Origin: a virus
Length of the DNA stretch: 64,000 nt
IMG/VR virus record: IMGVR_UViG_3300025141_000031
Strand: one strand, 5' to 3'
Shown: positions 1,786 through 55,818 of the stretch, piece after piece
Layout: every line of letters starts with the position of its first letter
Numbering within the stretch: position 1 is the stretch's first letter
Position numbers and translations under genes: made by a program
The notes under the pieces: generated by a model
Told to the model about the DNA's origin: nothing
The model's database searches: none
The model's input: the letters and a program-made list of their open reading frames with translations, nothing else

Positions 1786-3594
1786 CTATTCCGGAAATGC
1801 TGCACCAGTTGGAAGAATATTAAAGTCAATTATAATAAATTCTGCTGTTCTGGTTGGTTGTAAGAATAACTGACCTACCATTTGGTTTCTATCTATTACA
1901 TCCGGTGTATTATTTGTTTCATCCATTACTACTTTAAATGCATACAAACCTTGTCTTTGTTGTACACTTTCTAAATATGGATTAACAATACTTAAGAATC
2001 TATTTCTAGTTTCTGATGTATTTTGTTCAAACACTAAATATCTAGTTGCTGATGCAATAAATTTCTTAGCTGCAATCATCAATCTTCTAACATTTACTCT
2101 ATCTAATGCAGATGCTTTTTTCTGTAATGTTTTTTGTCCAAATGCTACTACTCCACTATTAGGAAAAGTTGCTAATGGATTAACATTTGCATCATATAAA
2201 GAATCTCTATTACCATGAGTTAATTTTCTTTCTGGTTGTATTGCTCTATCAATTCCACCTCTATTTAAACCAGCTGGTGCAAACCATTCAGCTGCAACCT
2301 TATCATTAAATGCATATACACCACCCATTGCAATTGAAGCTGGTACCCAAACATTTTTAGAAGCATAATTATCAGACATTTGAACCCATGGCCAATACAT
2401 TGCAGCATAATTAGTATCTCTTGCAGAAGCTTCTGTAGTTGCATCTGTAATTGTTGAACCAAATCCTACTGGATCAATTATTGTAAAACAATCTCCTCTA
2501 TTTTCACACATCTCAATTGCTGATGCTGCTACAATTGAATGACCTGTAAATGCTGAAATCACACCTGGTAACATTAATAAATTAATATCATATTCGTCTT
2601 GGTTTGCTAACAAGTTAATTGCATCTTCATATGCTGTTTTACCTTCACCTGCTGTTGTCAAGTCATATCCTTGCATATTTGTTGATTCAATCTGTTCATA
2701 AAATTTCTTTGGATGTTGTACAGTTCCATCACTACCTCCACTAAATGTTCCTGAAACTGCTAATGGTAATGAACCAGATAAGCCTGCTGCTACTGTTCCT
2801 GTACCATCATCTCTAATAGCACCATTCTCATCTAAATAATTTAAAGTAGTTCTATTAACAATTACTCTAACTTCTTTAGATTTGTTCATATAAGAACCTG
2901 ATGCTTGGATATAAGGACTAGTAGTACCAGAACCTCTTAAATTAAGTTTTGCATCTCCAATTCTTTTAGATATGAAGTTTGTTGAATTTGGATCTAATGA
3001 TAAGTTGTTCCAAGTCTCAACAATATTTTTTCTTTTAATTGTATCATCACCTTTTCTTAAATATAATGAGAAAGTACCTTTTGAAGTATTAACACTTGCA
3101 ATTTCCCATCTTAAGTTATCTTTCGAACCAGATAATAATCTACAATTTGTACTTATTGAAGTAGCAGCAGTCGATCCTGAACCTGCTGTTGATGCGGCAG
3201 GTAATCCACTATTTAATAGTGCTCCATCAGATAAAGTATACATTGTAAAACAAGCATTACCTAAATCTGCTGCTCCTACTTTAGTATCAGCTCCGCTAAA
3301 TGAACCAGCTAAAACTCTAACAACCGTTAAGGTGTCATGATGTCTTAAATATTCTTCTGCTGCTAATGACGTTAAGTATGAATAGTAATCTAAGTTCTCT
3401 GCGGAACCACTTTCGAACACATCTCCGAATAATTGTCTATATTCAGCAAATGATGTTACCATAGTAGGAACCAGACCAGGTCCTTTAACCGTTGGTCCAA
3501 TTATTGCTGCCCCTATATTTTGTACTCCTGCAGGAAGAAATGATAAGTCTCTTTCTCTAGTAAATACACCGGGTGATACGATTTTTTCAGCCAT
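1786..3594 (-). CDS. gp18: Contractile tail sheath protein (T4 gp18-like)
   Basis: SPGVFTRERD N-terminus; WFAPAGLNRG, DRVNVRRL, FEQN, LQPTRTAEFI motifs. Confidence 0.95.
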   Translation of the reverse strand: MAEKIVSPGVFTRERDLSFLPAGVQNIGAAIIGPTVKGPGLVPTMVTSFAEYRQLFGDVFESGSAENLDYYSYLTSLAAEEYLRHHDTLTVVRVLAGSFSGADTKVGAADLGNACFTMYTLSDGALLNSGLPAASTAGSGSTAATSISTNCRLLSGSKDNLRWEIASVNTSKGTFSLYLRKGDDTIKRKNIVETWNNLSLDPNSTNFISKRIGDAKLNLRGSGTTSPYIQASGSYMNKSKEVRVIVNRTTLNYLDENGAIRDDGTGTVAAGLSGSLPLAVSGTFSGGSDGTVQHPKKFYEQIESTNMQGYDLTTAGEGKTAYEDAINLLANQDEYDINLLMLPGVISAFTGHSIVAASAIEMCENRGDCFTIIDPVGFGSTITDATTEASARDTNYAAMYWPWVQMSDNYASKNVWVPASIAMGGVYAFNDKVAAEWFAPAGLNRGGIDRAIQPERKLTHGNRDSLYDANVNPLATFPNSGVVAFGQKTLQKKASALDRVNVRRLMIAAKKFIASATRYLVFEQNTSETRNRFLSIVNPYLESVQQRQGLYAFKVVMDETNNTPDVIDRNQMVGQLFLQPTRTAEFIIIDFNILPTGAAFPE

Positions 3595-3659
3595 TTATAA
3601 ATCTCCTTAATTATTGTTTCTTTATTTTTTAATAAATATACATTTCCGGCTTCAAACCT

Positions 3660-3935
3660 TTAGTTTGATGGTGAAAAAGTCCCGGAATCTAAATCCAATG
3701 TTCCTCTGCCGTATTTTTCGTTGAATTCTTTAACCAATTCAAGCTCTGTTTTTTGAATATTTGCATATTCCGTATTAAATGTTTTATCTAGTTGATTTAA
3801 TTTTTCCGTCTTTTGATCATGTAAAATTTGTTCTAATTTTAACTCTCCAAAGTTGGCAACTAACTTAGACATTCTTTCTCGTAACTCTTGAACTTTATTT
3901 AGTTCTTCTTCTGTAAACTTTTTTGTTTCTGACAT
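3660..3935 (-). CDS. Small coiled-coil hypothetical protein
   Basis: Helical heptads ending KYGRGTLDLDSGTF; own ATATTTAT motif and SD AAAGGAG. Confidence 0.7.
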   Translation of the reverse strand: MSETKKFTEEELNKVQELRERMSKLVANFGELKLEQILHDQKTEKLNQLDKTFNTEYANIQKTELELVKEFNEKYGRGTLDLDSGTFSPSN

Positions 3936-3996
3936 AACTGTTCTCCTTTTTTTGTTTCCTTATATAAATATGCTTATATTAACTTAAACAACCATC

Positions 3997-4257: not shown

Positions 4258-4299
4258 ATTTGTTCCTTTTTAATTTTATGTTTGTTTTTCATTTTCTAT

Positions 4300-8063: not shown

Positions 8064-9227
8064 TTACCCTACATATATTTTAAGTGGTATTTTATTCATT
8101 TGTTGTTGTAACGAATCTGCTTCTGCTTGTTTCCTTTCTAACTGCATTTGTCTTGACATTGAATCAAGAATTTCTTTTAATTCTGTTATAAGAGATTCTT
8201 TTTCTGATTGTCCTGCCGATAATAAATCTGCTCCGTTTAATGTCACTTCCGAATTTGGAATTGGAATTGCAGAATATTTACCTCTAATAAATCCGAGCAT
8301 TTCTTTTGCTAATGCTAAAGTGTATTTTCTTATCCATTGTCTACCTGTTGAATTAACATTTGAATAAACTATATCTTCATATGGAACATTTGAATAATCT
8401 GATATTGTTCCGGTATTTCCTTTTAAAGGATTACTACGATCAGCTTTCTTGATATACTGGAAATATATTTTTGTAAATGCACTACCGTCTGGAATTGGCC
8501 ATACTTGCATTCTATCATTTAATATTTGAAATGAATATGCTGATTTTCTTATTTGATCATTAAATTCAATTCCTTGTAATCGTAATACATCTGCATACGC
8601 TGGCATCATCATAAATGATACTCCAGGAGAATAATTACCCCAACTAAATGAATCTAACATTTGTTGAGATCCTAATCCTGTGCCTATAAATGGATCAAAG
8701 TATCTTGCTATAGCAGGTGGTGCTTCATGATATACTCTTTTCAATTCAATTGAATCTGTTCCAGCTGTACCTGATTCTAATGATACTATAGAACTATCTG
8801 TTAAGTCATATATTTGTTTACTTGATGTAACTGCTAATGAACCAGTATAATATGTTACATTACCTCCACTTCCAGCTTCTGTTCCGTATTCTTCTGCTAA
8901 TTCTATTAATCCACCTAAATTAGATGATACTTTTTGTTGGGTTAAATTACTACCTGTTGAAGCACCGAATAAGTTAACCATATTATCACGAATATTATAT
9001 GTATTAACTTGATTACCATATTCTGTTACAGCTTCTTCAAAGCAAGCAAAGAAATTTATATCCTGTAATTCAATATCAGTTAAAGGATATCCCATTCTCT
9101 TAGCACACCAATTTGCAGTATTATTTGCAGATGATGTAAAAGCATTATCTGTATCGTATAATCCGAATGGGGTACTACCCGCTGAAAATGATGATGACCC
9201 TGGCCAAATAGGAATTTTTACTGCCAT
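8064..9227 (-). CDS. Neck/adaptor protein (T4 gp13-like)
   Basis: MGYP..DIEL; WIRKYTLALAKEMLG.IRGKY..IP.P...VTLNG. Confidence 0.8.
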   Translation of the reverse strand: MAVKIPIWPGSSSFSAGSTPFGLYDTDNAFTSSANNTANWCAKRMGYPLTDIELQDINFFACFEEAVTEYGNQVNTYNIRDNMVNLFGASTGSNLTQQKVSSNLGGLIELAEEYGTEAGSGGNVTYYTGSLAVTSSKQIYDLTDSSIVSLESGTAGTDSIELKRVYHEAPPAIARYFDPFIGTGLGSQQMLDSFSWGNYSPGVSFMMMPAYADVLRLQGIEFNDQIRKSAYSFQILNDRMQVWPIPDGSAFTKIYFQYIKKADRSNPLKGNTGTISDYSNVPYEDIVYSNVNSTGRQWIRKYTLALAKEMLGFIRGKYSAIPIPNSEVTLNGADLLSAGQSEKESLITELKEILDSMSRQMQLERKQAEADSLQQQMNKIPLKIYVG

Positions 9228-9800: not shown

Positions 9801-12314
9801 TTAACTATCAGAACTTACTTCTACAGAAATATTAAAATACACTACTCTACCCCCAGTGTCATCTTTAATCATTGTCATTAATATATCACCAGCATTTACC
9901 TCAACTGTAGTTGTTTCATTGATAGTTTTTAATTTATCATTACCTAAAGCTGTCCATGTAACTTCGTCTATTAATACTGGAGCTACATCATTATTATTAT
10001 CTTCAATTGGCCTTAATCTAACTAAAGCCAGTTTATGTTCTGCAGATGTTCCATTTGTATGAGCCCAACCTACAATTTTTGTAACAGTTCCTGTTCGAGT
10101 TACTATTTGTCCACCAGCAAAAAAGAATGTTCTAACACTCATCGCGGTAGTTATTGTAGCGTTATGATCAGCAGTATGTTCTAATGGTGCTTTGGTATCA
10201 TTCATAGTTTCAGCATACTCATAAACAGTATCAGCTGTGCTTTGATTAAAACCCATAAAATGATAATTTTGTCTATATAAATTATCAGCAACTATTGTTC
10301 CACTTCCGCTTATATTTGAACCTGTTATATTGCCTAAATTTTGTAATGAACTTGATATAGTTCCTGCAGGTGTTAATTCTCCTACTGCATATGTTGTATT
10401 TGTATCTGAAACTGTATTTGTAATTGTTACTGTTCCATCAGCTGTTGTTTCACAAGTAATTCCAGTACCTGCTGTGAACATTAAATCATCACCTTGCGTT
10501 ATGGTAGTTGCGTTACTGTCAGTCGTTGCTGATACTGTAAACCCAGACCCCATGGTGTTTGTATCGTCATAATTATCTGCATGTATTGTACCAACACTAT
10601 TAGTCCAATCTAAATGTTCATTTGCTACAAAATTAGTTGTTGCATCATGATCTATTTGGGCAGAACTACTAATGATATTTGAAGCTTCTACTCTACCAAA
10701 TGAACCTGTACCCGTTGCTATTATATTTCCACTAGCACTTATATCGCCTGATGCTGTTATATCACCTTTTATTCCATTGGTAGTTGATCCATCTGCTACA
10801 TTTAGATTACCCCAAACTTTTAAGGTTCCATGTGGTGTTGAATTTTGTGTTCCATCGGTTGTTGGCCATAAATTAGAACCACTACCTATAGCAACATGAT
10901 CTGTAAAATAGTTTAAGTTTTTATTTGATTTTCTTTGAGATGTCCAAATTTGATTTCCTATTTTATCTTTAATCTTAAATTCTACGTCATCCTGTGCATT
11001 ATTAACTATAATAGAATGAGATGTTAAAGATATATATGAATTTCCATCAATATTTAGATTAATAGTATCATCACCGATTTCCATCCATTCTTGTAAGGCT
11101 GTACCTGTACCATCCAACTTGCTTCTAAAAAATATTGATTCATTATTACTGGAAGGTGTTATTGCTGAACCAGGGGCCATTACTAGCCCAGTTGAATAAA
11201 GCTTTCCACTTGCACTTATATTACCTGATGATGTTATATCTCCAAATAATACATTACTTGAAGTTACTGCAAAACTTCCAGTTTGTGTTTCTAATATATA
11301 AGAACCTGTTGTGGCTAATATTCCTTGTACATCTGAACCACTTGCGAATGAACCTGTTTGAGAATTTACAACAAATGAACCAGTATCTACTTGTAAAACA
11401 TATCCCGATAAATCTTGATCTCCTGTATTAGTACCACTTAAATTAGAACCTCCTATTGTTCCACTTGCACTTATATTTCCTGATGCTGTTATATTACCAC
11501 TTGCACTTATATCATTTGCGTTAATATATCCATTTACATTAAGTCCGGTTGATTTTGTTGTATCACCTTTTAATACATGAAATGAACCTGAATTTGCTGT
11601 AACTTGGTTTGATTGTATTGTTCCACTTGCACTTATATCATTTGATGCTGTTATTGCACCTATAAATGAGGATTGTCCTGTAAGAGTATGTTTGTTTGTT
11701 GATACATTCCCTAATATTGCTCTTCCATCGACTCGTAAATCTCCACCAGCTACATGTAATCTTTTTTGTGGTATAGATGTTCCAATTCCTAATTTATCAG
11801 ACAACAATCTCATTCTTTCAGTACCCGATATTGAGAATATAGTACCTCCACTTGATGGGCCATTAAGATATGTAGTTGTACTTGTTGAACCTAAGGCATG
11901 ACTTGCAAGATCATTTGATCTTCCTAGAGTGGATACAGCACCAATATTTCCTATATTCCATGTATATCCATTACTAGTAATTTTAACGGGACTCCCATTT
12001 CCCCCCTTTAAATGTAAACTACCTGTAAATTTATGTGTATCATTTGTATCATCACCAAATTTGGTTGTTCCTGAGGCTGTTATATTAGTAACTGCTATTG
12101 AAGGTGTTCCGTATAAACTATTTGCATATGAAGATGTTTCTGCATAAGATGATGAAGTCTCATAATTTACTTCAGTAATTGCATATGAAGCAGTCATCTT
12201 TAATGTTGGAACTAACGATCCAGTTCCATCGTATACTACTCCATCGTCACCGACAGTTAATACTCGTTTATAAGTATCCTGAATATTTTGGCCTGTTAAG
12301 TCTGGTAAAGCCAT
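9801..12314 (-). CDS. Fibre/whisker-like virion protein with G(N/D)I(T/S)ASG repeats
   Basis: MALPDLTGQNIQDTYKR N-terminus; many ITASGNISASG and TGSF repeats; ERMRL...LGIGTSIP..RLHV fibre motif. Confidence 0.7.
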   Translation of the reverse strand: MALPDLTGQNIQDTYKRVLTVGDDGVVYDGTGSLVPTLKMTASYAITEVNYETSSSYAETSSYANSLYGTPSIAVTNITASGTTKFGDDTNDTHKFTGSLHLKGGNGSPVKITSNGYTWNIGNIGAVSTLGRSNDLASHALGSTSTTTYLNGPSSGGTIFSISGTERMRLLSDKLGIGTSIPQKRLHVAGGDLRVDGRAILGNVSTNKHTLTGQSSFIGAITASNDISASGTIQSNQVTANSGSFHVLKGDTTKSTGLNVNGYINANDISASGNITASGNISASGTIGGSNLSGTNTGDQDLSGYVLQVDTGSFVVNSQTGSFASGSDVQGILATTGSYILETQTGSFAVTSSNVLFGDITSSGNISASGKLYSTGLVMAPGSAITPSSNNESIFFRSKLDGTGTALQEWMEIGDDTINLNIDGNSYISLTSHSIIVNNAQDDVEFKIKDKIGNQIWTSQRKSNKNLNYFTDHVAIGSGSNLWPTTDGTQNSTPHGTLKVWGNLNVADGSTTNGIKGDITASGDISASGNIIATGTGSFGRVEASNIISSSAQIDHDATTNFVANEHLDWTNSVGTIHADNYDDTNTMGSGFTVSATTDSNATTITQGDDLMFTAGTGITCETTADGTVTITNTVSDTNTTYAVGELTPAGTISSSLQNLGNITGSNISGSGTIVADNLYRQNYHFMGFNQSTADTVYEYAETMNDTKAPLEHTADHNATITTAMSVRTFFFAGGQIVTRTGTVTKIVGWAHTNGTSAEHKLALVRLRPIEDNNNDVAPVLIDEVTWTALGNDKLKTINETTTVEVNAGDILMTMIKDDTGGRVVYFNISVEVSSDS
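11206..11638 (-). repeat. Four identical 16-nt repeats (+ strand ccacttgcacttatat at about 11206, 11461, 11497, 11623)
   Basis: Read directly; they encode ISASG. A one-mismatch copy is at 10729. Confidence 0.85.
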
Positions 12315-13485: not shown

Positions 13486-15159
13486 TTATATAGTATCTAA
13501 TCCATCTACATGAATTTTACCATAGAATTCTGGTCTTACCATTTTCTTAGCATATCTAGTCATTACACCTTTTCTTGGAGTGAATGATGCTGGATCGTAT
13601 ACTAATGGAGTCATGATAAGTGGAATATATGGTGCATAAACTGCTCCAGTTTCAAGGAATTGAGCTCCTCTATATCCCATTAATATAGTATTCTCAGTCA
13701 TATAAGGATTCTTATAAACTTGGAATCTATTATTAATAGCACCAACTTTTTGTACACCCATTGCAAATTGCATTTTGTCACCATCTGTATCAGCTGCATA
13801 TCCTGGGATTGATTCTAGGATAGTTGCTACAGTTGGAGAACATACTAGGAAGTTTGCTCCACCTCTTAAAGTTAATTGGTGAATTTTGTTCGAAACTTTT
13901 TGTACTTTTGTACCTAAAGTTTGGAACCATGTACCTTGGTTGTAAGCTGCAGAATTACCTGCTGTATTAGCGAATACTGTAGTTGCAGAATTGTACTCAT
14001 ATCCTAGTCTTGCAGACCAGTAATCAGTTGTTTGAGCATTTTGCATTAACATATCTAATAATTCTAAATCAATTTCTTGCGAAACGTATTCAGATAACAT
14101 ACTAGTTAATTCAGCTTCAGCATCAATTGAATGATAAGCATTCAAGTCTTGAGCAAATTCTGGAGTCCAGATTGCTTTTAACTTTCTTGTCTTAGCAACA
14201 ATTGCCTCAGATCTCATCTCCAAGTTAATTTCTGGAATATCTAAAGTAGATACACTAGTATTAGTTGGAGCTGAAGTATCTTCAAAGTCACCTCTTGAAG
14301 TATCACCTGGTTGTTTTTGATAAGTAACTACCGCATTCTGAATAGCTGGAGTTGCAGCTGCTGCTTTTACAACAAATGTTACTGTCGGAGTTGTACTAGT
14401 TTCATCATCTACAGTAGTAAACTGTGGATAATAAGTACTAATTCCTGAACCAGAAACTTGATAAGCTCTTACACCATTTGTATCTGCTAAATCTGAAGCT
14501 CCAAATTTCCAAGCAAGAGTTTGAATCTGACCGTGTAATACAGAAGCGGCTGCTAATGATGCAGAAAATTCTGCGTCATGGTTTGTTCCAGCTTCAAATG
14601 TAGTTTGACTAGCATAAGAAGAAGTTACAATGTTAGTTCCAGCAGTACCAGCACCATTTACTAACGTACTAGTTGATGTTTCATTGATAGAATATCCGAA
14701 TCTACCTGCACCATAAAGACCTTCAGTAGCTACTGTGCCACCTTTATTGTCATCTGTTACACCGAATACGGAATCATTTTGTGAATCTTTACCAGAGTTT
14801 GTAGTAAATCCTGGTTGTGCAGTACCATACTTGAAATCTAAGAAGAATACAAGTCCAGATGGTAAGTTCATTGGTTGAACGCTTACAAAATCCTTTGCAG
14901 CGATCTCAGCAAAAATTCTTCTAACTAATGGTAGAGCTACCCCTGACCATTCTTCAGAATTTGCACTAGTTCCAGTTGCGTTAGCTTCTGATACTAATTG
15001 TTTTGCTTGGTTTTCCAATAGAACTGCCATTCCTGACTTTTCATATTCTTTACCTAAACCTTCAAGGAGTCCTGTTCTTTCCCATTTTCTAACTAAACCT
15101 GCAGTAGCAGCTTTTGACTTAGCAACGGAATCATTTGGCATTAATGAATTTATATCCAT
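13486..15159 (-). CDS. gp23: Major capsid protein (T4 gp23-like)
   Basis: LPLVRR...VQPMNLPSGLVF; AKTRKLKA.WTPEFAQDLNAYH.IDAEAEL; YAPYIPL; F.P.KG.MTRY. Confidence 0.97.
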   Translation of the reverse strand: MDINSLMPNDSVAKSKAATAGLVRKWERTGLLEGLGKEYEKSGMAVLLENQAKQLVSEANATGTSANSEEWSGVALPLVRRIFAEIAAKDFVSVQPMNLPSGLVFFLDFKYGTAQPGFTTNSGKDSQNDSVFGVTDDNKGGTVATEGLYGAGRFGYSINETSTSTLVNGAGTAGTNIVTSSYASQTTFEAGTNHDAEFSASLAAASVLHGQIQTLAWKFGASDLADTNGVRAYQVSGSGISTYYPQFTTVDDETSTTPTVTFVVKAAAATPAIQNAVVTYQKQPGDTSRGDFEDTSAPTNTSVSTLDIPEINLEMRSEAIVAKTRKLKAIWTPEFAQDLNAYHSIDAEAELTSMLSEYVSQEIDLELLDMLMQNAQTTDYWSARLGYEYNSATTVFANTAGNSAAYNQGTWFQTLGTKVQKVSNKIHQLTLRGGANFLVCSPTVATILESIPGYAADTDGDKMQFAMGVQKVGAINNRFQVYKNPYMTENTILMGYRGAQFLETGAVYAPYIPLIMTPLVYDPASFTPRKGVMTRYAKKMVRPEFYGKIHVDGLDTI

Positions 15160-19145: not shown

Positions 19146-19457
19146 CTACTTTCTTAATAAATAAATTGTTGCACTCGATGCAGCGGTTATTTTAGAAACT
19201 GATATATCATATACTACACCTGCTGTTAAATTAGTGGCTGCTATAGAACCTCCACCAGGTTGATGTAATACTGCACTACCATGAGTCTTAACAATTACCG
19301 CATTCCATCTTTGATCATTAGAACCGGTATAATCAGTTTGGCCATCTGCAACCGTTGTAGATGCAAATGCTGAAAAGTTTCCTTTTGTATTATATTGGCT
19401 TCCTGAATCTTGGTAAGTTGCAAACCAGGTTTCTTTTTGTGATGGATTAGCACTCAT
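19146..19457 (-). CDS. Small beta-rich virion protein (decoration-like)
   Basis: Ser/Thr/Gly-rich beta strands with SGS/TGS motifs; SD GGAG. Confidence 0.55.
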   Translation of the reverse strand: MSANPSQKETWFATYQDSGSQYNTKGNFSAFASTTVADGQTDYTGSNDQRWNAVIVKTHGSAVLHQPGGGSIAATNLTAGVVYDISVSKITAASSATIYLLRK

Positions 19458-28144: not shown

Positions 28145-28420
28145 TCATACTATTGGTAATGAACCAGTCGTTACTGATGACCAAGTTGGTTCTACTAACC
28201 AACTACCATCATCATTGCAATATTTTGATGAACTAGCTACACATTTAAATATTGATACATCATCTAATATATTTTCATATTCTATATTACAATATACCAA
28301 ATTATCAATTCCACAAGAACTTGTTGAATGAAAAGATGCTGTGAAATTTGGACTTGTATTTACTGCATTAGTTATATTACTAATATCACTTCCACTTACT
28401 ATAAATCTATTTATTACCAT
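28145..28420 (-). CDS. Small Cys/Ser-rich fibre-associated protein
   Basis: Clean ORF in the fibre operon; SGS/TGS motifs. Confidence 0.5.
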   Translation of the reverse strand: MVINRFIVSGSDISNITNAVNTSPNFTASFHSTSSCGIDNLVYCNIEYENILDDVSIFKCVASSSKYCNDDGSWLVEPTWSSVTTGSLPIV

Positions 28421-28429
28421 AATTTTTCT

Positions 28430-29332
28430 TTACGTTGCATATGTACCAAAATTAAATTGATCTAAATTATCTGAGTTTCCATCTACTGTCAATGATTCTT
28501 GCATTCCAACATTTACAGGATGCAATGTCACTCTATCAATATAAACTTTACTACCATTTGAACCATCCCATCGACCGTCATCATTATCTAATCGTATAGT
28601 CATTAAAGTGTTAACAGTTTGATTATCGAATGTAAAACACATATCATATTTTGTCCAAGAAGTTGTCATTGTATTTTGAGCAGAATAATATGTGGCTCCT
28701 GTTGAAGGAGATCCTAAAGAAGAATTTGTAGCATCACCTCCACTATATCCAGAGAAATTATAGACATAATTAGGACTGTCAAAGGCAACACTAAAAATAA
28801 ATACGCTTTGTCTAACAGTTCCAGTATTTGAAGGTGCTGAGTTTGATTTTCTTGCATACCAACTGCAATACCAAGTGGCACCTGGATGAGTTAGACTAAT
28901 GATATGTCCATTAGTTATAGGTAAATTATGATAATGTGATGTATAAACTTCACCTGATGTTCTTCCATTTGTTATTTGGATTACACGTCCTGAGGTTCCT
29001 ACTGTACTAGATGCATCACCTTCATCTTTTCTTCTTAAAGATGTTAGGCCTGAACCATAAGACTTATTTTTTACTTCTGTATCATTTGTAGAACTATATG
29101 ATGGGTCTTTAAATGGTACTGTTTCGGTAGTTCCAAAATATGTAATTCTAGGTGCATACCCTTCAGCATCATCATAATTATAATCTGTAGAACCTCCATA
29201 ATCAGTATAGCCTGCAGCTGCATAAACTTTGCCGCCACAAATAGGCATATAACTACATAAAGTATTAAATATTCCTCTTCCTAAAGTTTTATGAGCTCCT
29301 CTGGCTGCTGTTTGATTTGGTGGAAATGGCAT
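28430..29332 (-). CDS. Carbohydrate-binding-module-like fibre accessory protein
   Basis: WYCSWYARKS...MTTSWTKY...F......IRLD.......VYIDRV CBM-like strand pattern. Confidence 0.55.
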   Translation of the reverse strand: MPFPPNQTAARGAHKTLGRGIFNTLCSYMPICGGKVYAAAGYTDYGGSTDYNYDDAEGYAPRITYFGTTETVPFKDPSYSSTNDTEVKNKSYGSGLTSLRRKDEGDASSTVGTSGRVIQITNGRTSGEVYTSHYHNLPITNGHIISLTHPGATWYCSWYARKSNSAPSNTGTVRQSVFIFSVAFDSPNYVYNFSGYSGGDATNSSLGSPSTGATYYSAQNTMTTSWTKYDMCFTFDNQTVNTLMTIRLDNDDGRWDGSNGSKVYIDRVTLHPVNVGMQESLTVDGNSDNLDQFNFGTYAT

Positions 29333-32300
29333 TATTTATTCTCTAATTTTTTAATTCTTGTTTCTAACTCTTCAATTGTATCTTGTTGTTCTTTAATACC
29401 TTCTATTAATAATGGAACTATTTTTTCATAATTAACTGCTAAGTATCCAGAACCACTTCTTTCCGTAACAGCTTCAGGTAATACTGTTTGTACTTCTTGG
29501 GCAATAACTCCTATGTCATGTTTTTGGCCTTTTGGTTGTCCAACCCATCCTCTTGTCCATCCTGGACCTTTTTCATTCCAATCAAATGATACTCCACGTA
29601 ATTGTTTTATTTTATTAATAGGGTCATCAATAATAAGAATATTATCTTTCTGTCTTTTATCAGAACTAAAAAAGGCTACTACATCAGCATTAGATTGTAT
29701 TTCCCCATCAGTAAATACCTTTCCTTGTACACCATAGAATGCATAAGAATCATCATCCGAAACATCTGCTACATATGCTGCTGTAATTTGTGGGGTTCCT
29801 GGACATACATCCATGTTTGCTTCTGCAAATACAGCTGCCATATATGGTCTAGAAGCTACACCAGCACCACATTTATCCATCCCAGTTATACCACCTGTAC
29901 CCCATGCAGTATTTGCATTAGATGCACCATTACCAATACCAAAGTATCCTGCTACTCTATTTGAACCTAAATCACAATCATTTGCTTCTACATATAATGG
30001 TGCTGCATCGGCTGAATTACCAAAATCAGATGTTTCTACAATACGTAATGTTCCATCTGTCATTAACATTCCTGGGTGAGTTGATATTAAATCATCATCT
30101 AATGTTATACATTTTTCTCCTGATGAATTAAAAAATGACATACTTGCTTCAGTACCATTTAATTCAATTCTTTGATTTGTCGAACCTCCAAATATTGCAA
30201 CACCATCATCTAATCTCAGATTAGATCCTGCAGTTGTTCCCCAGTTAGTAGATTGAATATTACCTGTTTGTATTCTACCACCTTCGATAATAGTTGAACC
30301 AGGCGCGGTTCCTGCAGGTGTTAAGTATAATCCTTGAACTTCTTCATCTGTTAAGGTCTTACCTGCATATACTCTTATTTCATCTATTGAACCTGTAAAG
30401 TATGTTCCTGCGGTATCAAATGTATGTGAATTACCTTGTATAATGGAAAGATTGCCATCATCGGTAAGAGCTCCAATTGCTGACAAACCACCATGAGCAA
30501 GTGTGGTATTATCAGTCATTGTATGAGATTTCTGTTTAAGGACTGAATTTAAATATAAACTTGCTGTTGGTGTAGTGTTTGTTGGTCTATTTAAAGTTCC
30601 GACAACATGATACCATTCGCCTGAATCAATACTCGCCGACATTAAACAATCTTCATCGGCTGCATTTGCTCCAGCTAGATATGTTCTAAAATAAACATTA
30701 CTTGCAGATACCCAAAGCGCTACACCAGATGAATCTCCACCTTGCTCATATATTACTTGTGGTGAGTTGTAAGAAACATCATCACATTTGAACCATGAAG
30801 ACCATGAACCAGATTCAATGTTTATAGTACTAGAACCATCATGATACCAAGTATTGTCATGAGTTACATATGTATTGTTACCAGATTCTAATTTAAGAGA
30901 ATATTGTGTTATTGCATTACTACCCGATCCATGAGAGCCAGCTGGGTTACTAATTGTCCAGGCTCCTGTAATGTCTTCTCCGCCAACGGAATAATTTGCT
31001 TGGTTAAGAACAGTACTACCTGTACTATTAGCAAAATTTAAATGAAGAACTAAATTGTCATTAGGTGGATTTTTTGGTAAACTTGATACTTCTATCTTTC
31101 CTTTGAAGTATCCATTTCCAGTATATAAACCAAATCCTGTAACTCCATCTGAGAATGATGAATCTGTTATTCCTGATAAGTCTCCTATTTGTGCTTGTAA
31201 ATTTAAATCATATAATCCAGAACCAGTACGTTCCACAATTTGCATGTATGGCGTATATGGGTCATTTGGATTTGCATTTAATCTAATATATCCAGTACCA
31301 ATCTTTCCTGTTGATACAATTACTTGTGAACCTGTATATGATTGAGCTGCGAACGGAGAATCTCCTAATGAACCGGATGGTCCATGAGTTGGAGACCCAT
31401 CATAATTTAAACTTCTTGTTACAAATAAATAACCACCATAGTCGGTATCACTTGATGCATCAAATCTAGATGCGGATTGAACCTTTACATACTCTGTAGT
31501 AAATCCTGTTGATGATATTTTTTTAAGTGATAATATTTCTCCGTATGCAAATCCAGATACATTTTGTATTGACATTGTAGTATCTGTTGCTGCATGATGT
31601 GCTCCTGGATGTAATGCTGATCCAGTTAATACTGATGAATTTGCAACGTATAATTGTCCACCTACTGCATTAACTGTTTCCTTTTCAAATACGGCTGTTG
31701 ATAGTGTTCCTCTTATTCTTGCATTCTCAACTTCTAACATACCTCCTGATACTGCAGTTAATCTAAATCCTGAACCTGCTAGGTTCGAAACAAAACCATC
31801 AGATTCAACAGTTCCGTCTTTACGAAGAATCATATTACCACCTTGAAGTTTAGTATCATCAAATGACCATCCTGCTATTTCTTGTCGTTCTGTTGATAGT
31901 TCAAATATTCTATCTCCTGCAGTGCTCCACCCTTTAATACCCCATTCATTAGAAGTATTAGTTTGGCCGATTGCAAGCATTACATTATCCCTATCATTGT
32001 CACCTATATTATTCTTACCATCACCAGAATCTCCATGAATTGTTATCAATTGATAATCAGCATCTATACTAATACCGAATTTATCTGTAGTGGCGGTTGT
32101 GAAAGAATATAAACGTTTGTCGGTAAAATTCCAACTTGCAATTTTATTAGTATCTCCAAATCGGAATATATTATTACCTCCTTCCGTTCCTTTAATACCC
32201 CAATTAGTACCATCAGTATGATATATTTGTACACGATTATTATCATCTTCTCTAATTTCAATATTTTGGGTAGATGGATCTGCATTAAGGATAATACCTT

Positions 32301-40525: not shown

Positions 40526-42283
40526 CTAGTAGTCCCATCTAATCAGGAAATTCATATCAATATCTTCCCGTTTTTGTATTGGTCTTGCTAGTTTTGCAAC
40601 TGCTAATAATCTTGCTCTATCATCATATAATCCAACTGTGGTAATATATGGTTTAAATCCACTACCTGTGAATTGTGGCATTATTAATTCGCTTTTTAAT
40701 TTTCTTAATGTTGGATTCATACTAACATTACAATCACTTGCTGGAACTTTACAAAGTACTTCATTTTCATAAATTGTTCTTGAAGATTTGTGTTCTAGGG
40801 ACCATACATTTTGTAATGCATAATAATATTTTGGTAAAGGACTTGATACTACAACTTGTCCAGTTCTATAAAATACATTTCCTGCAACTGATGTTTGGTA
40901 CGCACTACTACTATAGTAATGATTGTTAGCTAAAGATTCTATTGAACCAGATTCTAAATATGTATCATAAATTCGTATTTCATCTAAGCTTCCTGATAAA
41001 GTTGTATTTGTATTTCCTGATGAATCTAAGGCTCCAAATACTAAATGAGATGGATTCATTACACTAACATTTGTATCTGCATGATATCTATCAGTTACAC
41101 TATTATCTTTAACTCCATCAATCCAAATACCTAAATCTGATCCTGATTTTTGACATACAATATGGTGCCAATTTTGATTATCTGCTACGGCTGATGAGGC
41201 GGTAATAAATGTACTTGATGTTACTTCGAGAGTAGAAGAACCATCACTTCTACGTAATAATAATTTACCTGCATCATATCTTGGATGTGAATGATTTGTT
41301 ATAGTTATATCATAAGGAAATCTGTTACGTAAATTTTGTGTATCTGTAAGTTTTGTTGTTCTTTTATATCTACTGGTTCTTATAATTTCTGTTTCAACTC
41401 CTCGCTTAGAAATTATATTTTGTGTTGTTATTTTAGATGATGAAAATGCTTGATGTGCTGGAATATTACACCAAAATGAGATTGAAAATTCTTCATCGTT
41501 TCTAAAATTAAATTTTGGATTATTTGGTGTTAACACATATGCTGCTGAACCTGAATTCCATCTTGCGGATATTCCTGAACCTGTTATATATGTTCCTGTT
41601 GTTGGAATACCTCTTCGATATTCTACATTATAAGCTTTTGAAAATATAGCATTTTTTTCATTTACTAATTGTGGAAATAAAGCCTTATCTACATCGCCAC
41701 TTACTGCTCCAGAACCTATTTTACCAAAATTTAATTCAAAATGACGAAATTCATCATTGAATCCCCAATATGCAACTAAGTTCTTTTTAGGTGCAAAACT
41801 AGCTGAATCTATTTTTGGGTCTCGTAAATTACCATATTTATCATCATATAAATCAAATTTATCATAAGTAAGCGAACCTGTATTCGAAAGTTTAACTGAT
41901 CTACGTTTAATATTTTCTCCATGCTGGACATATGGTATTGCAATTACACTACAAGAATAAAATAAATTTTTCTCTGTATATCGTGGATTGTAATGTTCGA
42001 ATGTATTCATAGGCTGATGTTTATTTTCAGGTCTATAGAACATATGGTTTAATGCTTTCCATGTCGGGGTTTGGTATGTCCCATCAGAATTCTTTATATT
42101 GTCCGCGGATAAATTTGAAGCACTTATTGGAGTTGTTTGTACATTATGAATTCCATGACGTACGGTATAATAATTTGCTTGCCAAGATGAATTATTGGTT
42201 TTGAATGTTGTATTCGCTTCAAATGGCGTATTTGAAACATCATCTGCATTAATTGGTCTGAAAACTACTGCCCTGGAAGCCAT
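40526..42283 (-). CDS. Baseplate/fibre-attachment protein with LamG domain
   Basis: FSISFW...WHHIV...GSLDEIRIY; C-terminal PYITTVGLYDD...LLAVAKL..PI.K. Confidence 0.7.
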   Translation of the reverse strand: MASRAVVFRPINADDVSNTPFEANTTFKTNNSSWQANYYTVRHGIHNVQTTPISASNLSADNIKNSDGTYQTPTWKALNHMFYRPENKHQPMNTFEHYNPRYTEKNLFYSCSVIAIPYVQHGENIKRRSVKLSNTGSLTYDKFDLYDDKYGNLRDPKIDSASFAPKKNLVAYWGFNDEFRHFELNFGKIGSGAVSGDVDKALFPQLVNEKNAIFSKAYNVEYRRGIPTTGTYITGSGISARWNSGSAAYVLTPNNPKFNFRNDEEFSISFWCNIPAHQAFSSSKITTQNIISKRGVETEIIRTSRYKRTTKLTDTQNLRNRFPYDITITNHSHPRYDAGKLLLRRSDGSSTLEVTSSTFITASSAVADNQNWHHIVCQKSGSDLGIWIDGVKDNSVTDRYHADTNVSVMNPSHLVFGALDSSGNTNTTLSGSLDEIRIYDTYLESGSIESLANNHYYSSSAYQTSVAGNVFYRTGQVVVSSPLPKYYYALQNVWSLEHKSSRTIYENEVLCKVPASDCNVSMNPTLRKLKSELIMPQFTGSGFKPYITTVGLYDDRARLLAVAKLARPIQKREDIDMNFLIRWDY

Positions 42284-42369: not shown

Positions 42370-43791
42370 TTAGAAGTCTAATTTTACTTTAATTAATGCC
42401 TCTCTTGTAAATGATTTCAATAAAGGTTTACTTAATTTCGCACAAGCTAATAATTCTCTTCTATCATTATACATACCAATAGTAGTTATATATACTTTAG
42501 GATCTCCGATAAACGAATTTTGTTTAAATCTACCATTTGATCCGGTAATAAATGTTGGATTATTTGAGAAGTTATATTCTGCATTAGTTGCTCTTACAAA
42601 ATAATGAGTTGATGTTATCTTTTCTGATGATCTTGCTTGGAAGCCTAATTTATCACCAGAATCATCAATTAAGTATGCACCTGAATGAGACATTGCAGTA
42701 TATAATTTAAATGAATTATCACCAGCTACTTCTGAACCTGATACTGTATTAAATGATGCTGATAAATTCATTCCACTACCACCTATTGCAATAATTCCTA
42801 AATCTGGATATATTAGTCCATAATGAATTGGATTATCTTGTTGGTACACTCCTTGTTCAATTGAACCAGAAACCATATTATATCTTCTTCCGAAATGTCC
42901 TCTTCTAACTGAGATTGCAGAAGTTATTTTTGAATCATCAATTAATCTAATGTGAGGACAAAGTGCTGATCCTAATAATGGACGAACACCATCAGCTGAT
43001 GATGTATTTGAATTATTACCTTGGTTTGCTCCTGCCGCAAATTTAGATCCTGATAGTTCAGCTAAACATACTTCAACGTTTCCTTCATCTAATCTTTCTC
43101 TCATTAATGCTCTATTAACATTAATAAAATACATATCATCTTCATCTGTACCATTAACGGTAAATTTTTTATCGTCTGGTTCTAAACATAATAATCTATA
43201 TTGAGAATAAATAGCTCTTGCTGGTGTATCATTAACTTGTCCTCCTTCATCTGCAGAACCTGAACCATTAACATGGCCCCAAGCAACACTAAACATTGCA
43301 GATGATGTTATATCTTGAAGTACTCCATTACTAGTATTATTATCTCCATTCCAAACTTCGTAATAATATCTTTTTTGAGTTGAAGTCATTCTAGATGATG
43401 TATGGAATGTAAGTTGATTACCTATATTGTTTGGAAATAATCCTCTAGTTACTATTTCTTGCTGATTTGGGATAACATCAGTATCAAGATCAAATTCCGT
43501 AAAGATTCGTCCGTTTCGTGCAGCTAATCTCGCTCTTTCTCTTTGAGCAATTAATTGATTTGCAATTTGTCTTGCTCTTCTTTCTATTTCGATATTTCTT
43601 ATCTTAGCCGCATTAGCTATATCTCTTACACTATCAGATTGTAAGACTGGCGAAGTTCTACCTGGTCGAGACCTCATTGGACTAGCTACCCTAGATCTTG
43701 GACTTCTGGCTTTAAATCGGCCACCCCAACCTCCTCTCGCGATCATGGAAGAACCGTTATAACTTGATTTGTTTCTTTTTAATGATGTCAT
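42370..43791 (-). CDS. Baseplate/fibre-attachment protein with C-terminus paralogous to 40526..42283
   Basis: VYITTIGMYND..ELLA.AKLSKPL.K; Arg-rich N-terminal extension. Confidence 0.7.
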   Translation of the reverse strand: MTSLKRNKSSYNGSSMIARGGWGGRFKARSPRSRVASPMRSRPGRTSPVLQSDSVRDIANAAKIRNIEIERRARQIANQLIAQRERARLAARNGRIFTEFDLDTDVIPNQQEIVTRGLFPNNIGNQLTFHTSSRMTSTQKRYYYEVWNGDNNTSNGVLQDITSSAMFSVAWGHVNGSGSADEGGQVNDTPARAIYSQYRLLCLEPDDKKFTVNGTDEDDMYFINVNRALMRERLDEGNVEVCLAELSGSKFAAGANQGNNSNTSSADGVRPLLGSALCPHIRLIDDSKITSAISVRRGHFGRRYNMVSGSIEQGVYQQDNPIHYGLIYPDLGIIAIGGSGMNLSASFNTVSGSEVAGDNSFKLYTAMSHSGAYLIDDSGDKLGFQARSSEKITSTHYFVRATNAEYNFSNNPTFITGSNGRFKQNSFIGDPKVYITTIGMYNDRRELLACAKLSKPLLKSFTREALIKVKLDF

Positions 43792-52197: not shown

Positions 52198-52198
52198 A

Positions 52199-53329
52199 TT
52201 ATCTTACCACTTTAAAGTAATAACCATTATCGAAATATTTTATTTCGCTATCACTATATTTTGATCTAATCTTAAATTTATAATATCGTTCTGGGCTTAA
52301 TGCATTCATCCAGTAATTAAAATAACTTCCATTTGCATCATCACTAATCTTTGTATATACATCATCATAATCTAATAATGTTTCTCCTGTTACTGCATCA
52401 CATACCGCATAAGAACTGGTTTTTGTCAATCTTGAATCTGTAGTATAAAACGATGCAGTTGTATATGTTTTAGTTGGATATTTTGATCTTGCACCCAATC
52501 GAAATTTCACTCTTGAACCTTCTGGATATTTCTCTTCTATATTTTTAAAGTATACAATTGGTCCTCCGTTATTTGTTTGATGTACAATATCTGTTGTACC
52601 GGTTAAGGTATAATCATTCCAAACTACTTCTAATTTAGGAGCATATACTGTATGAGTATCTTTTGAAAAGAATTTTAAATTTAAACTATTACTATCTCCA
52701 ACCTCTGTGGAATACTGTTGTTTTAATATAAATCCGTAATTTGGTATCGTTCCAGCTAACCATTTATTAACTATATCTGTTACATCCATTCTTACATCTG
52801 GTGATTGGTAGTCAAATGATTGTGATGCCTCATACCCAGAACCTGTTATCCATGTTCCTCCTCCTAATGGTTGCTGTACTCCTATTTGTCCTATACTATG
52901 AGCTGATCCAGTATTCCAAGCAGTTTGATCATCATAATTATCACTAAAACGCCATGATGCTCCATTACGCGTTTCTGGAATATCTGCGTAATTCCCAGTT
53001 CCATTACTCCATGATTCAGATACTGGGTATGCATATAATGTATACGTTATTGGTAAATCGGTTGAATAAATATGTTTTAAATTTAAATAAAATTTACGAT
53101 CTGTAGATCCAATATTTCCATTATGAATAGATTGAGATAAATCTGTAAATTGTGTTCCTGCAAAATCTAATAATATACGAGTATTATATGTTCCAACCTG
53201 CCATTGGTCATCTAACTTTGAACCAGATGTAGTTTTTACTAATTCTAATATCTGGTCTATACCTGTATTACGATATTCCTTTCTTTCATATATCGTTGCA
53301 TCTCTTTCTATGTATATTTGATGTTGCAT
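52199..53329 (-). CDS. DNRLRE-like beta-sandwich baseplate protein
   Basis: DATIYE...N.G; RILLDF; W.NG; DVTDIV..W; NYGF.LK; F.S.D....PKL.V.W. Confidence 0.6.
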   Translation of the reverse strand: MQHQIYIERDATIYERKEYRNTGIDQILELVKTTSGSKLDDQWQVGTYNTRILLDFAGTQFTDLSQSIHNGNIGSTDRKFYLNLKHIYSTDLPITYTLYAYPVSESWSNGTGNYADIPETRNGASWRFSDNYDDQTAWNTGSAHSIGQIGVQQPLGGGTWITGSGYEASQSFDYQSPDVRMDVTDIVNKWLAGTIPNYGFILKQQYSTEVGDSNSLNLKFFSKDTHTVYAPKLEVVWNDYTLTGTTDIVHQTNNGGPIVYFKNIEEKYPEGSRVKFRLGARSKYPTKTYTTASFYTTDSRLTKTSSYAVCDAVTGETLLDYDDVYTKISDDANGSYFNYWMNALSPERYYKFKIRSKYSDSEIKYFDNGYYFKVVR

Positions 53330-53340
53330 ATTCTAATCCC

Positions 53341-55221
53341 TTATAATCCTACAACTCGACCTTTAATATCTGAATTAGGATATCTAACTTCAAATATACA
53401 AGGATCTAATGATGGATAAATTATATTATTTAATGTTGCTGCTTTCATATCATAAACGTTTCCAGAATATCCCGAATTTGTATCATAATTATTAATGATG
53501 TCTACGTCTGCTACTGTTTGTACTCCTTCTACATTATCTAAACTACTATATACATCTGAAATTATTATTGGTCCATTAATTTGCATATTATCGATATGTA
53601 GTAATTCCTTTAATCTACTTACACATTTTAAAACTACTTCAGATGCATTATAATTTGGTTTTGGTATTACTTCAAATTCAATTCCAATGTTTATGATAAA
53701 CGCATCTTTAATATTAATTGCATCTGTCATTAATCTAAATTGTCCCAGATATGTTTGTACATTTTGTTTAAGTGCATCATTTAATGGGACTACTTGTTTT
53801 CTAGCATTATATCCCATACAATATATATTCATTGCTAAAGGATTTGGAATTTTAGCTTCAGGATTTGTTGAATCAACTTGTTCATCTTGTATAATATATG
53901 CCTTTGCTATAGACCCAAATTTTGCTGGCATTGTATAACATCTTAGAATATAATCTTCTCTTGTAACTGCTCTATTTTGTGCTGCAAATGTTCCTAACGT
54001 TTTCTGACGGACAACTTCTATTGGTTCAATTGATGCTCCACCTTTCGATGGAAATGGATTATTAATAGCAACAGATGCCTTTGCTTGTTTTAATAATGAT
54101 GCATCTAAATTAACAGTTTGGTTTGCATAACTCACTATTCCAAGTTCGTTTATTGAATTTGCAGGCACATTATCTAATAACCCCTTTCCTCTTGAGTACC
54201 GAACAGTTAAAGTAGTTTGTGATGGTGCTTGTCCATATGTACTTGAATATAAAAAGTTTGCAGGATCTACAGATAAATCAACTTCACGCTTAAATCCTCT
54301 CAATCCTAGGCCTACATTTTCTGGGTTTGGTATTAAATCTCTATCATGTTCTTCTGATATTCCAGCTCCGAATTGTAATTCTAATTTATTATCGGCTCTA
54401 AATCTAGTTATAAATCGTTTAGCCGTTCTTTTTAATTTTAAGATATAAGGTACACTACTATTATAACTCGATAGTTCAGGGTCATTGTATTCTATATTTC
54501 GTACTGAGTCTTGAATTGTATCTTGTGCTAGATATGGTACTTCATACCAGCTATTTCCTGCTTCGTCTACAACATCAATTATTTCTATAATATCTGTATC
54601 TGGTAATACTAGTTTATCGTAAATTTTTGGCTCATTAAATTCGTAATCATGTTGAACTATTTGTCCTGAAACTGCTTGTACTTGTTTTTTAAGTAAATAG
54701 TATGTTGGAGTTCCAGTTGCTTCATCGACTTGATATACAGTTGTTGTCCTTGTATTTATTCCTGAACCTGTATGATTAAAATCTACTGGCATTAATGATC
54801 TAAACTCAATACCTGTAGTTGATTTTGCAACCATTCCTGCTTCTAATGATAATGCATATTTCATATCTGGTTTTGCATTTATTCCTGTACCAATTGCTGG
54901 AACTGTTTGATATACATCTAATTGTACGAGTGATGATATTAAATTTTTAGGTTTATATCCCATGGAGTTTGCAATTGCATTTATATTAGGTCTTTCCTCT
55001 GCATATGCTAATAACGATTCTTTAAGATTACTATCAGTATAATATGATAAAACATCTCCTACGTAAGATGACATTTCCATAAACATCATACCAGGTGAAG
55101 TTTCATTGAAATCGTTATATGTTCCAGGAAAATAATTTTTAGTAAAGTTAATTAGATTTTGCCTAAACTCACCAAAATCCTTACTTAAATATTTTACGTC
55201 CTTTTTTATTATATCTGCCAT
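53341..55221 (-). CDS. Baseplate wedge protein (T4 gp6-like)
   Basis: KDF...R.NL...YNDFNETSPGMMF.E..SYVGDVLSYY.D; LQFG.G; AQNRAVT.EDY. Confidence 0.85.
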   Translation of the reverse strand: MADIIKKDVKYLSKDFGEFRQNLINFTKNYFPGTYNDFNETSPGMMFMEMSSYVGDVLSYYTDSNLKESLLAYAEERPNINAIANSMGYKPKNLISSLVQLDVYQTVPAIGTGINAKPDMKYALSLEAGMVAKSTTGIEFRSLMPVDFNHTGSGINTRTTTVYQVDEATGTPTYYLLKKQVQAVSGQIVQHDYEFNEPKIYDKLVLPDTDIIEIIDVVDEAGNSWYEVPYLAQDTIQDSVRNIEYNDPELSSYNSSVPYILKLKRTAKRFITRFRADNKLELQFGAGISEEHDRDLIPNPENVGLGLRGFKREVDLSVDPANFLYSSTYGQAPSQTTLTVRYSRGKGLLDNVPANSINELGIVSYANQTVNLDASLLKQAKASVAINNPFPSKGGASIEPIEVVRQKTLGTFAAQNRAVTREDYILRCYTMPAKFGSIAKAYIIQDEQVDSTNPEAKIPNPLAMNIYCMGYNARKQVVPLNDALKQNVQTYLGQFRLMTDAINIKDAFIINIGIEFEVIPKPNYNASEVVLKCVSRLKELLHIDNMQINGPIIISDVYSSLDNVEGVQTVADVDIINNYDTNSGYSGNVYDMKAATLNNIIYPSLDPCIFEVRYPNSDIKGRVVGL

Positions 55222-55233
55222 ATTCTAATTCCT

Positions 55234-55818
55234 TTAATATGATGTGGTAGTATTACCATCTGTCATTATTGTTATTATTTGATTAGCTCCTTGATCTGTT
55301 ACTCGAAATGTTAATTTAATAAATAATGTATTTGTTAAATTCTTATTTTCGTCACGATTATCTATATTAATATTTTGTATTTTAATATATGGTAACCAAT
55401 ATTTAATTGCATCTTGTATTTCTCTATTTAAATTTACTATTAACTCTGGTGAATTAGGTTCGAATACTCTATCCTTAATTCGTACTCCAAATGTTGGTTG
55501 TAACATTCTTTCACCAGGATATGTTAATAATAAATTCTTTAAATTAGTTAAAGCTTGTTCTGTAGTAGTATATGATACTGGAAATTTACCTATTTGCCTT
55601 TCTGATTTTTCATTTGACTCTATAGATCCTGAAACTGCTAGATATGTAGCTGAACCTAAATCTGTATCATCCTTTTCTATACTAGAGCCATTAAATGGCA
55701 ACATAACACCTATAGCCGTATCTTCTTCTTGATCTTTCGGAATGTACGGGTATATCGGTCTACCACCACCTTTTGAGTAAGCAGTTTGTCGAGTTTGGTT
55801 ATAAATTAAACTTGGCAT
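55234..55818 (-). CDS. Baseplate wedge / sheath initiator (T4 gp25-like)
   Basis: NLKNLLLTYPGERMLQPTFG....VFE...I..WLPYI. Confidence 0.85.
   Translation of the reverse strand: MPSLIYNQTRQTAYSKGGGRPIYPYIPKDQEEDTAIGVMLPFNGSSIEKDDTDLGSATYLAVSGSIESNEKSERQIGKFPVSYTTTEQALTNLKNLLLTYPGERMLQPTFGVRIKDRVFEPNSPELIVNLNREIQDAIKYWLPYIKIQNINIDNRDENKNLTNTLFIKLTFRVTDQGANQIITIMTDGNTTTSY

Follow-up and report, generated by a model that had tools for sequence, protein, structure and literature searches.

Why does one short tripeptide, serine or threonine followed by glycine and serine, recur throughout the structural proteins of a single virus? The question is raised by a 64,000-nucleotide stretch of IMG/VR virus record IMGVR_UViG_3300025141_000031 (hereafter the window, meaning the whole stretch analyzed), in which a preliminary description had noticed the motif [S/T]-G-S, written [ST]GS below, and proposed it as a signal for O-glycosylation of the virion surface. 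The window comes from an uncultured aquatic T4-like phage, a member of the Far-T4 clade (Roux et al. 2015, PMC4360716). We conclude that [ST]GS is a selected short linear motif, with [S/T]-A-S as its weaker form, in the outward-facing virion proteins of this clade. That it acts as an acceptor signal for serine O-glycosylation by phage-encoded GT4-type enzymes is the best single explanation, one that we hold tentatively and a little short of even confidence.

The window has approximately 32% G+C and carries the structural module of a T4-like myophage, with all substantial open reading frames (ORFs) on the minus strand. Family searches identified the tail tube, sheath, gp23-type capsid protein, portal, TerL and prohead protease, and recognized the gp6-like and gp25-like wedge proteins. 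A C-terminal Peptidase_S74 chaperone domain was found in a fibre of 1977 amino acids (aa), and LamG domains in the 585-aa and 1949-aa proteins. Interspersed non-structural genes encode a fused SbcD-SbcC, a DnaG-type primase, PhoH, an endonuclease, ClpP, a VanY-domain protein and a GH19 lysin-like protein.

We counted the motif in all window proteins and calculated each expectation from the protein's own composition (numbers are given below as observed/expected). Altogether there are 85 [ST]GS sites versus 21.1 expected (P ~1e-25), and SGS (48/11.0) and TGS (37/10.1) take ranks 1 and 2 among the 8,000 possible tripeptides. Permutations of equal composition are far rarer: SSG and GSS appear 15 and 7 times compared with 48 for SGS, and TSG, GTS, GST, STG and SGT appear 11, 11, 15, 16 and 21 times compared with 37 for TGS; the excess is thus order-specific rather than compositional. 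Shuffling the proteins in blocks down to six residues left 29 +/- 5 sites (z ~11), so that the enrichment against shuffled sequences called for in the preliminary description survives composition control. The true reading frame alone is enriched, the other five being at or near expectation and one of them below it, and serine codons at the sites are a mixture of TCN and AGY; these two observations rule out a word selected at the DNA level.

The specificity of the motif is sharp. Position 1 takes S or T only, position 2 prefers G over A, and position 3 is almost strictly S. The related tripeptide [ST]AS, described earlier as part of a frequent [ST][AS]S pattern, is indeed raised (39/17.1), [ST]GT is increased just 1.8-fold, and AGS, GGS, NGS, DGS, SGA, TGA, SGN and SGD are all close to expectation in the window. 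Positions -1, +1 and +2 are enriched for hydrophobic residues (0.42-0.44 versus 0.31). The 16 residues flanking the sites are no more similar to each other than those around random positions in the same proteins, with the exception of the LamG signature [ST]GS[IL]DE[IV]R, which accounts for 3-4 sites, and some TGS[FY] units that lie near one another in the 837-aa fibre. The proposal that the motif occurs in unrelated folds and is not one domain repeat is therefore borne out, and a single propagated repeat is ruled out with the same two exceptions. The sites inside matches to the LamG family PF13385 are residue 430 of the 585-aa protein, residue 1624 of the long fibre, residue 1817 of the 1949-aa wedge protein and perhaps also its residue 1129; the remaining ~81 sites lie outside this signature and have unrelated flanks. 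The [ST]GS motif is real and acts at the protein level.

The site-bearing proteins are listed below, one per line, with observed versus expected numbers of sites. Retention of sites is given for relatives from IMG/VR (G002 to G005, G002 being the closest) and for the cultured Flavobacterium phage immuto.

44541..50390, minus strand: 1949-aa baseplate wedge-type protein with LamG domains; 20 sites vs 2.7; 14 of the 18 sites aligned to G002 are still [ST]GS there
29332..35265, minus strand: 1977-aa tail fibre with C-terminal Peptidase_S74; 16 sites vs 4.0
9801..12314, minus strand: 837-aa fibre-like protein; 12 sites vs 2.8, with the close TGS[FY] units at residues 311-345
40526..42283, minus strand: 585-aa LamG baseplate or fibre protein; 7 sites vs 0.6; site 430, in the LamG signature, is kept in G002-G005
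42370..43791, minus strand: 473-aa baseplate-region protein; 5 sites vs 0.7
1786..3594, minus strand: tail sheath; 5 sites vs 0.7, all within residues 62-275, ahead of the conserved core
52199..53329, minus strand: 376-aa baseplate-region protein; 3 sites vs 0.5
8064..9227, minus strand: 387-aa neck or head-tail adaptor-like protein; 2 sites vs 0.55; site 128 is kept in four relatives
19146..19457, minus strand: 103-aa protein; 2 sites vs 0.27, both kept in G002
28145..28420, minus strand: 91-aa protein beside the long fibre gene; 2 sites vs 0.17
56348..57607, minus strand: 419-aa protein; 2 sites vs 0.21, 0 of 2 kept in G002
13486..15159, minus strand: major capsid protein of the gp23 type; its 1 site, residue 236, is retained in G002, G003 and immuto
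53341..55818, minus strand: gp6-like (626 aa) and gp25-like (194 aa) wedge proteins; 1 site each

The six main counts that had been made by hand (20, 16, 12, 7, 5 and 5) were exact, and so were the minor ones for the neck (2), capsid (1), gp6-like (1) and gp25-like (1) proteins and for the two proteins of about 100 aa (2 each). The accompanying estimate that composition would give roughly 2 sites per 2000 aa was too low, the actual expectation being 2.7-4.0 per ~2,000 aa in these S/T/G-rich proteins.

To describe where on the virion the motif occurs, we grouped the window proteins by annotation. Seventeen outer virion proteins (sheath, neck, capsid, fibres, wedge and peripheral baseplate) contain 74 sites versus 15.4 expected, while 15 inner-virion or non-virion proteins (hub, tube, scaffold, protease, portal, TerL, SbcCD, primase and others) contain 3 versus 3.5, as expected from the earlier suggestion that the motif is limited to the outer proteins. 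The companion statement that SbcCD and primase have no [ST]GS stood in part: the fused 1053-aa SbcD-SbcC has one TGS, and the DnaG-type primase is a 307-aa protein rather than the 827-aa protein that had received this label, in which just a cytidylyltransferase-like N-terminus was detected.

The tail sheath shows the same partition within one protein family. Among 121 sheath homologues, the N-terminal part that precedes the conserved Pfam core (PF04984/PF17482) has 580 sites versus 105.8 expected, and the core itself has 0 versus 10.9. A structural model of the sheath (mean predicted local distance difference test score, pLDDT, 72.5) matches solved sheaths, T4 gp18 included, at Z scores of 21-25. 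The motif-free core is the segment that is similar in sequence to residues 444-653 of T4 gp18, which we take to be the inner layer of the sheath, with the variable domains facing outward. When sites were mapped on two AlphaFold2 (AF2) models, all 10 were predicted to lie in loops or at strand ends. A Foldseek search with the model of the 473-aa protein gave no match.

The excess is a property of the whole clade. Three members have been cultured, namely phages immuto (Flavobacterium), Mel-JY01 (Microcystis) and RM378 (Rhodothermus), and the ordered tripeptide is 4-8 times as frequent as by chance in the outward-facing tail, baseplate, fibre and neck proteins of the window phage and the clade. 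In the structural region of immuto we counted SGS 61/16.1 and TGS 47/16.6, compared with 3/7.5 and 6/6.9 in its non-structural genes. The corresponding numbers are SGS 63/22.3 and TGS 42/15.6 for Mel-JY01, and SGS 28/10.4 and TGS 24/8.3 for RM378, a phage of a thermophile with 42% G+C. In the relatives G002-G005 only those genome parts that encode tail, baseplate and fibres show the excess. Eighty loci around the capsid gene gave SGS 619/211 and TGS 516/180, and structural homologues pooled across the clade contain 402 sites versus 112.9. Thus the excess spans very different G+C contents and hosts.

No such excess was observed outside the clade in the two phages compared. The 27 virion proteins of T4 (12,542 aa) have SGS 6/6.6 and TGS 2/6.6, which rules out a generic trait of T4-type virion folds. 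In the marine, low-G+C Pelagibacter phage HTVC008M, an SGS excess (28/11) comes together with raised counts of SSG (24) and GSS (19), and TGS is at expectation (13/13.8); this pattern reflects a Ser/Gly-rich composition rather than an ordered motif, and a generic trait of low-G+C marine myophages is ruled out as well. The idea that sister clades use a different tripeptide found no support in these two phages, neither of which shows a comparable ordered tripeptide.

Comparison of orthologues shows how the sites evolve. Window sites are kept more often than other G-centred tripeptides are kept exactly, with 68% versus 49% in G002, 54% versus 28% in G003 and 46% versus 21% in immuto, or approximately twice the conservation of other xGx tripeptides. 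Swaps between S and T at position 1 are common, and a change of position 3 to T almost never occurs. Lost sites become [ST]AS, [ST]SS or turn-like sequences such as NGD, DGE and HGN. Turnover is nevertheless considerable, with about 30 private sites each in the window and in G002 (72% identity). In the 473-aa family (120 homologues; 5.9 +/- 0.8 sites versus 0.72) the sites mostly occupy fixed columns, three of which (177, 351 and 416) are present in at least 98% of sequences, and the sheath family (121 homologues; 4.8 +/- 1.5 sites versus 0.74) has two invariant columns, 62 and 232, and 22 rare ones. This combination of fixed and many rare columns indicates that selection acts on particular positions and also favours new sites in variable loops.

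What could read such a motif? As previously noted, the window itself lacks a glycosyltransferase: none of its ORFs matched such a family in our searches of the 64,000 nucleotides. The enzyme evidence comes from the genomes of relatives. There, a syntenic core consists of two adjacent genes for GT-B proteins of ~485 and ~440 aa (the first is called GT1 below) followed by a small GT2 gene. The core was found in immuto, Mel-JY01, G003, G004, G005, G007, G008, G013 and G018, and RM378 has a distant homologue. The GT4-like pair, the GT2 and variable sugar genes were present in 7 of the 7 complete or at least 90% complete clade genomes examined, in answer to the earlier call for a search beyond the window; among the records that are at least 90% complete the pair occurs in four of four, and the records without it are fragments. 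Islands around the pair contain further glycosyltransferases, aminotransferases, an epimerase and methyltransferases.

Both enzymes of the pair have a Glycos_transf_1-type C-terminal Rossmann domain with the E-x7-E motif and invariant glutamates (E320/E328 and E294/E302). The match to PF00534 is below the cut-off in G003 and above it in RM378 (p013). In profile searches of the PDB, B736L (PDB 3oy2) was nearest for both enzymes (E = 6e-16 and 4.5e-4), and TreT and other GT4 structures were also hit. Liquid chromatography-mass spectrometry of immuto DNA detected three canonical nucleosides and fdPreQ1, and a glycosylated base was not reported (PMC10516641), which argues against DNA glycosylation as the job of the island.

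GT1 is split into two ORFs, corresponding to its N- and C-terminal Rossmann halves, in two separate lineages, G005 (62678-64209) and Mel-JY01 (83441-84932). The motif excess of Mel-JY01 is strong despite the split, and since these two phages share the split yet differ in the strength of the motif, it is uninformative for the link between enzyme and motif. The hexapeptide LPKL[KR]K is found at the N-terminus of GT1, and the second enzyme has one or two copies at its C-terminus (in the G003 pair, L100:16443-19216; also in G004 and G005). No other ORF in G003-G005 carries it, G005 has the exact pattern just at the C-terminus of the second enzyme, and exact matches are absent from immuto, Mel-JY01 and RM378. 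It may be a shared docking peptide.

We propose the following mechanism. Soluble GT4-type glycosyltransferases encoded by the phage would read [S/T]-G-S in the host cytoplasm on tail, baseplate, fibre and neck proteins, either folded or in the course of assembly, and would O-glycosylate serine there. Extension of the glycan would fall to the other, variable members of the glycosylation island, both glycosyltransferases and sugar-nucleotide enzymes, and the outcome would be a sugar coat outside the tail apparatus. We infer here the modification itself, the residue modified, the connection of the enzymes with the motif, and a role in shielding, stability or adhesion. The full proposition, in which a true sequon is read by the soluble GT4 pair together with the variable island and a glycan coat covers the whole tail apparatus of a clade that ranks among the most abundant aquatic phages, is possible, and we regard it as slightly more tentative than glycosylation at the motif as such.

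Several observations weigh against glycosylation. Among 50,697 GenBank phage records GT1, and with it the pair, occurs in this clade alone, and the best 80 IMG/VR matches are all at least 49% identical and seem without exception to come from the clade. Both the pair and the motif are thus traits of one clade, and their co-occurrence amounts to a single evolutionary event, i.e. one data point. Alternatively, host glycans could be the substrate of the pair. The clade phages avoid the motif in their cytoplasmic proteins only to an extent that is weak and not significant (29/38.3, P = 0.07). An exact match to the candidate promoter box described below heads the glycosyltransferase pair in one of four relatives. 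Roughly half of the lost sites still have the glycine, turn-type sequences such as NGD and DGE having taken their place, and several sites are invariant, as would be expected for a purely structural turn as well. Our literature search found no report of virion modification in the Far-T4 clade or of an S-G-S-type sequon, no mass spectrometry or glycan-stain report of virion glycans for immuto, RM378 or Mel-JY01, and no solved structure from any clade member.

The main competitor is a purely structural or folding role, in which [ST]GS would be the clade's preferred tight turn or strand cap in beta-rich outer proteins and would undergo no covalent change. We consider it rather unlikely, even though much of the evidence above fits it: the predicted placement at strand ends and in loops, the hydrophobic neighbours at -1, +1 and +2, the invariance of many sites over ~120 homologues, the 3-4 sites within the LamG signature, and the lost sites, which often keep the glycine while their neighbours change to N, D or K, the classic turn residues. 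Portal, scaffold, SbcCD and tape-measure-like proteins are generally helix-rich; several of the motif-poor proteins are of this kind, so the distinction between outer and inner proteins is partly confounded with that between beta and alpha structure. Against a structural role, the homologous folds of T4 (sheath, wedge and fibres) do without any excess, HTVC008M has no ordered one, and generic turn-formers such as NGS, DGS, SGN, SGD, GGS and AGS stay near expectation. Turn geometry alone requires neither the strict serine at position 3 nor S or T at position 1, both of which are maintained in ~20 unrelated contexts. New sites also keep appearing in variable sheath loops, and the sheath core has none where 10.9 are expected.

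A recognition motif of another kind would fit the distribution evidence, which specifies no chemistry and supports other modification or docking as much as glycosylation. The serine might be phosphorylated, acylated, ADP-ribosylated or modified with phosphoglycerol or similar, or the motif might be where a decoration protein, chaperone or environmental ligand docks non-covalently. The methyltransferases and aminotransferases of the islands would be compatible with other chemistry. However, glycosyltransferases are the only conserved modifying enzymes identified, and no clade-core kinase, ADP-ribosyltransferase or acyltransferase is present among the annotated ORFs, although such enzymes were not systematically searched for; we regard these options taken together as improbable, clearly more so than a structural turn. 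Finally, an artefact of Ser/Thr/Gly-rich composition or of low-complexity fibre linkers is hardly credible. The motif-rich proteins are indeed rich in S, T and G, and the composition of HTVC008M does raise SGS along with its permutations. In the window, however, a 3- to 4-fold excess remains after per-protein and 6-residue shuffles, same-composition permutations are 3 to 7 times rarer, and the excess is found in the coding frame alone, so that the permutation, block-shuffle and frame controls rule this explanation out.

Additional features were recorded during the analysis. The gene for the SbcD (Metallophos) and SbcC (AAA_23/SMC) fusion, a single 1053-aa protein, lies at 35316-38477 (minus strand), and the DnaG-type primase gene at 38444-39367 (minus strand) follows with a 34-nucleotide overlap. 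The 827-aa protein at 25361-27844 (minus strand) is conserved throughout the clade, and its cytidylyltransferase-like N-terminus was detected by PHROG alone, with no Pfam match; a similarly placed 907-aa gene of immuto is annotated as NadR/NMN adenylyltransferase, and blastp gave no immuto match to the 827-aa window protein. Between the sheath and neck genes, 4300-5517 and 5529-6629 (both minus strand) encode Gly-rich proteins (12-15% Gly, one with a Gly run), the first of which has a GH19/endolysin-like domain; full-length homologues of both are absent even from G002. A 775-aa protein encoded at 57623-59950 (minus strand) combines a VanY D-Ala-D-Ala carboxypeptidase domain with a weak tape-measure match and is possibly a cell-wall hydrolase associated with the tail. 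Upstream of the baseplate module, at 62304-62939 (minus strand), lies the gene for a ClpP-family protease. In the whole genome of G004 the top tripeptides are collagen-like (GPQ, PQG, TGP and PKG; 95 versus 11 expected) and point to a large collagen-repeat fibre protein, and Mel-JY01 encodes a prolyl 4-hydroxylase.

With respect to transcription, the sense-strand word ATATTTAT/TATTTATA is located 13-48 nucleotides upstream of 16 of the 57 window ORFs; these 16 are mostly structural and include sheath, tube, portal and fibre, and examples precede 1240-1728, 1786-3594, 8064-9227, 20385-22271, 29332-35265 and 40526-42283. In all clade genomes its over-representation on the coding strand is about 2-fold, and we regard it as a candidate for the late promoter of Far-T4 phages. 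These phages do not use TATAAATA, the late promoter word of T4.

If [S/T]-G-S is indeed glycosylated, phage virion glycosylation would have its first defined sequon, as part of a virion-wide O-glycosylation code new for phages of Gram-negative bacteria. Sugar coats would then be a core Far-T4 trait and not an actinophage curiosity, in a clade with thousands of homologues in aquatic metagenomes. Such a coat could influence how the particles adsorb, how stable they are, how they stick to marine polymers and how host defences recognize them, and would have a bearing on host-range prediction and phage ecology. Because cultured members exist (immuto, RM378 and Mel-JY01), the proposal is directly testable. 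Even with no modification, a clade-specific tripeptide that marks the outer face of the virion would be a useful annotation signal and an unexplained structural regularity.

Among known systems, the Laminin_G_3 family (PF13385) covers sites such as SGSLDEIRIY, TGSIDEIRVY and SGSIGQVRAW but accounts for just 3-4 of the 85. Rhodothermus, the host of RM378, was formerly classed in Bacteroidota, the phylum that also includes the Flavobacterium host of immuto. The general O-glycosylation system of this phylum likewise uses a three-residue Ser/Thr sequon, D-[S/T]-[A/I/L/V/M/T] (PMC12871550). Exported proteins are the substrates of that system, whereas virion assembly takes place in the cytoplasm, and the Bacteroidota sequon, from which [ST]GS had been said to differ, is not enriched in the 17 outer virion proteins (37/43.0); the N-glycosylation sequon is not enriched either.

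GtfA and GtfB form a two-protein O-linked N-acetylglucosamine (O-GlcNAc) transferase of serine-rich-repeat adhesins in which GtfB is non-catalytic. They resemble the phage pair in being adjacent GT-B proteins of similar sizes, and their action in the cytoplasm on Ser in S-x-S-type sequences resembles the one proposed for that pair. In contrast, both phage proteins keep E-x7-E, and their proposed targets are isolated tripeptides in folded domains, not serine-rich repeats. The analogy found no support in sequence: no GtfA or GtfB chain appeared among PDB hits at E <= 1 in sequence and profile searches. Chlorovirus glycans are mainly N-linked, at atypical sites of the major capsid protein. The chlorovirus protein B736L (PBCV NY-2A, PDB 3oy2) is the nearest solved relative of both enzymes, with similarity that spans the C-terminal Rossmann half only; like the phage, the chlorovirus supplies its own set of soluble glycosyltransferases.

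Mycobacteriophage virions are glycosylated by phage glycosyltransferases (Freeman et al. 2023, Cell Host Microbe, cited in PMC12619734). In that account the glycans are at the C-termini of the capsid and tail-tube proteins, whereas in the window the C-terminal 30 residues contain 1 of the 85 sites, the tube none and the capsid one. Our predicted targets are instead the sheath, baseplate, fibres and neck, the host is Gram-negative, the glycosyltransferases belong to an unrelated lineage, and the tripeptide is proposed from sequence rather than by chemical demonstration. The underlying principle would nonetheless be the same in both cases, with soluble glycosyltransferases encoded by the phage coating virion proteins with glycan in the host cytoplasm.

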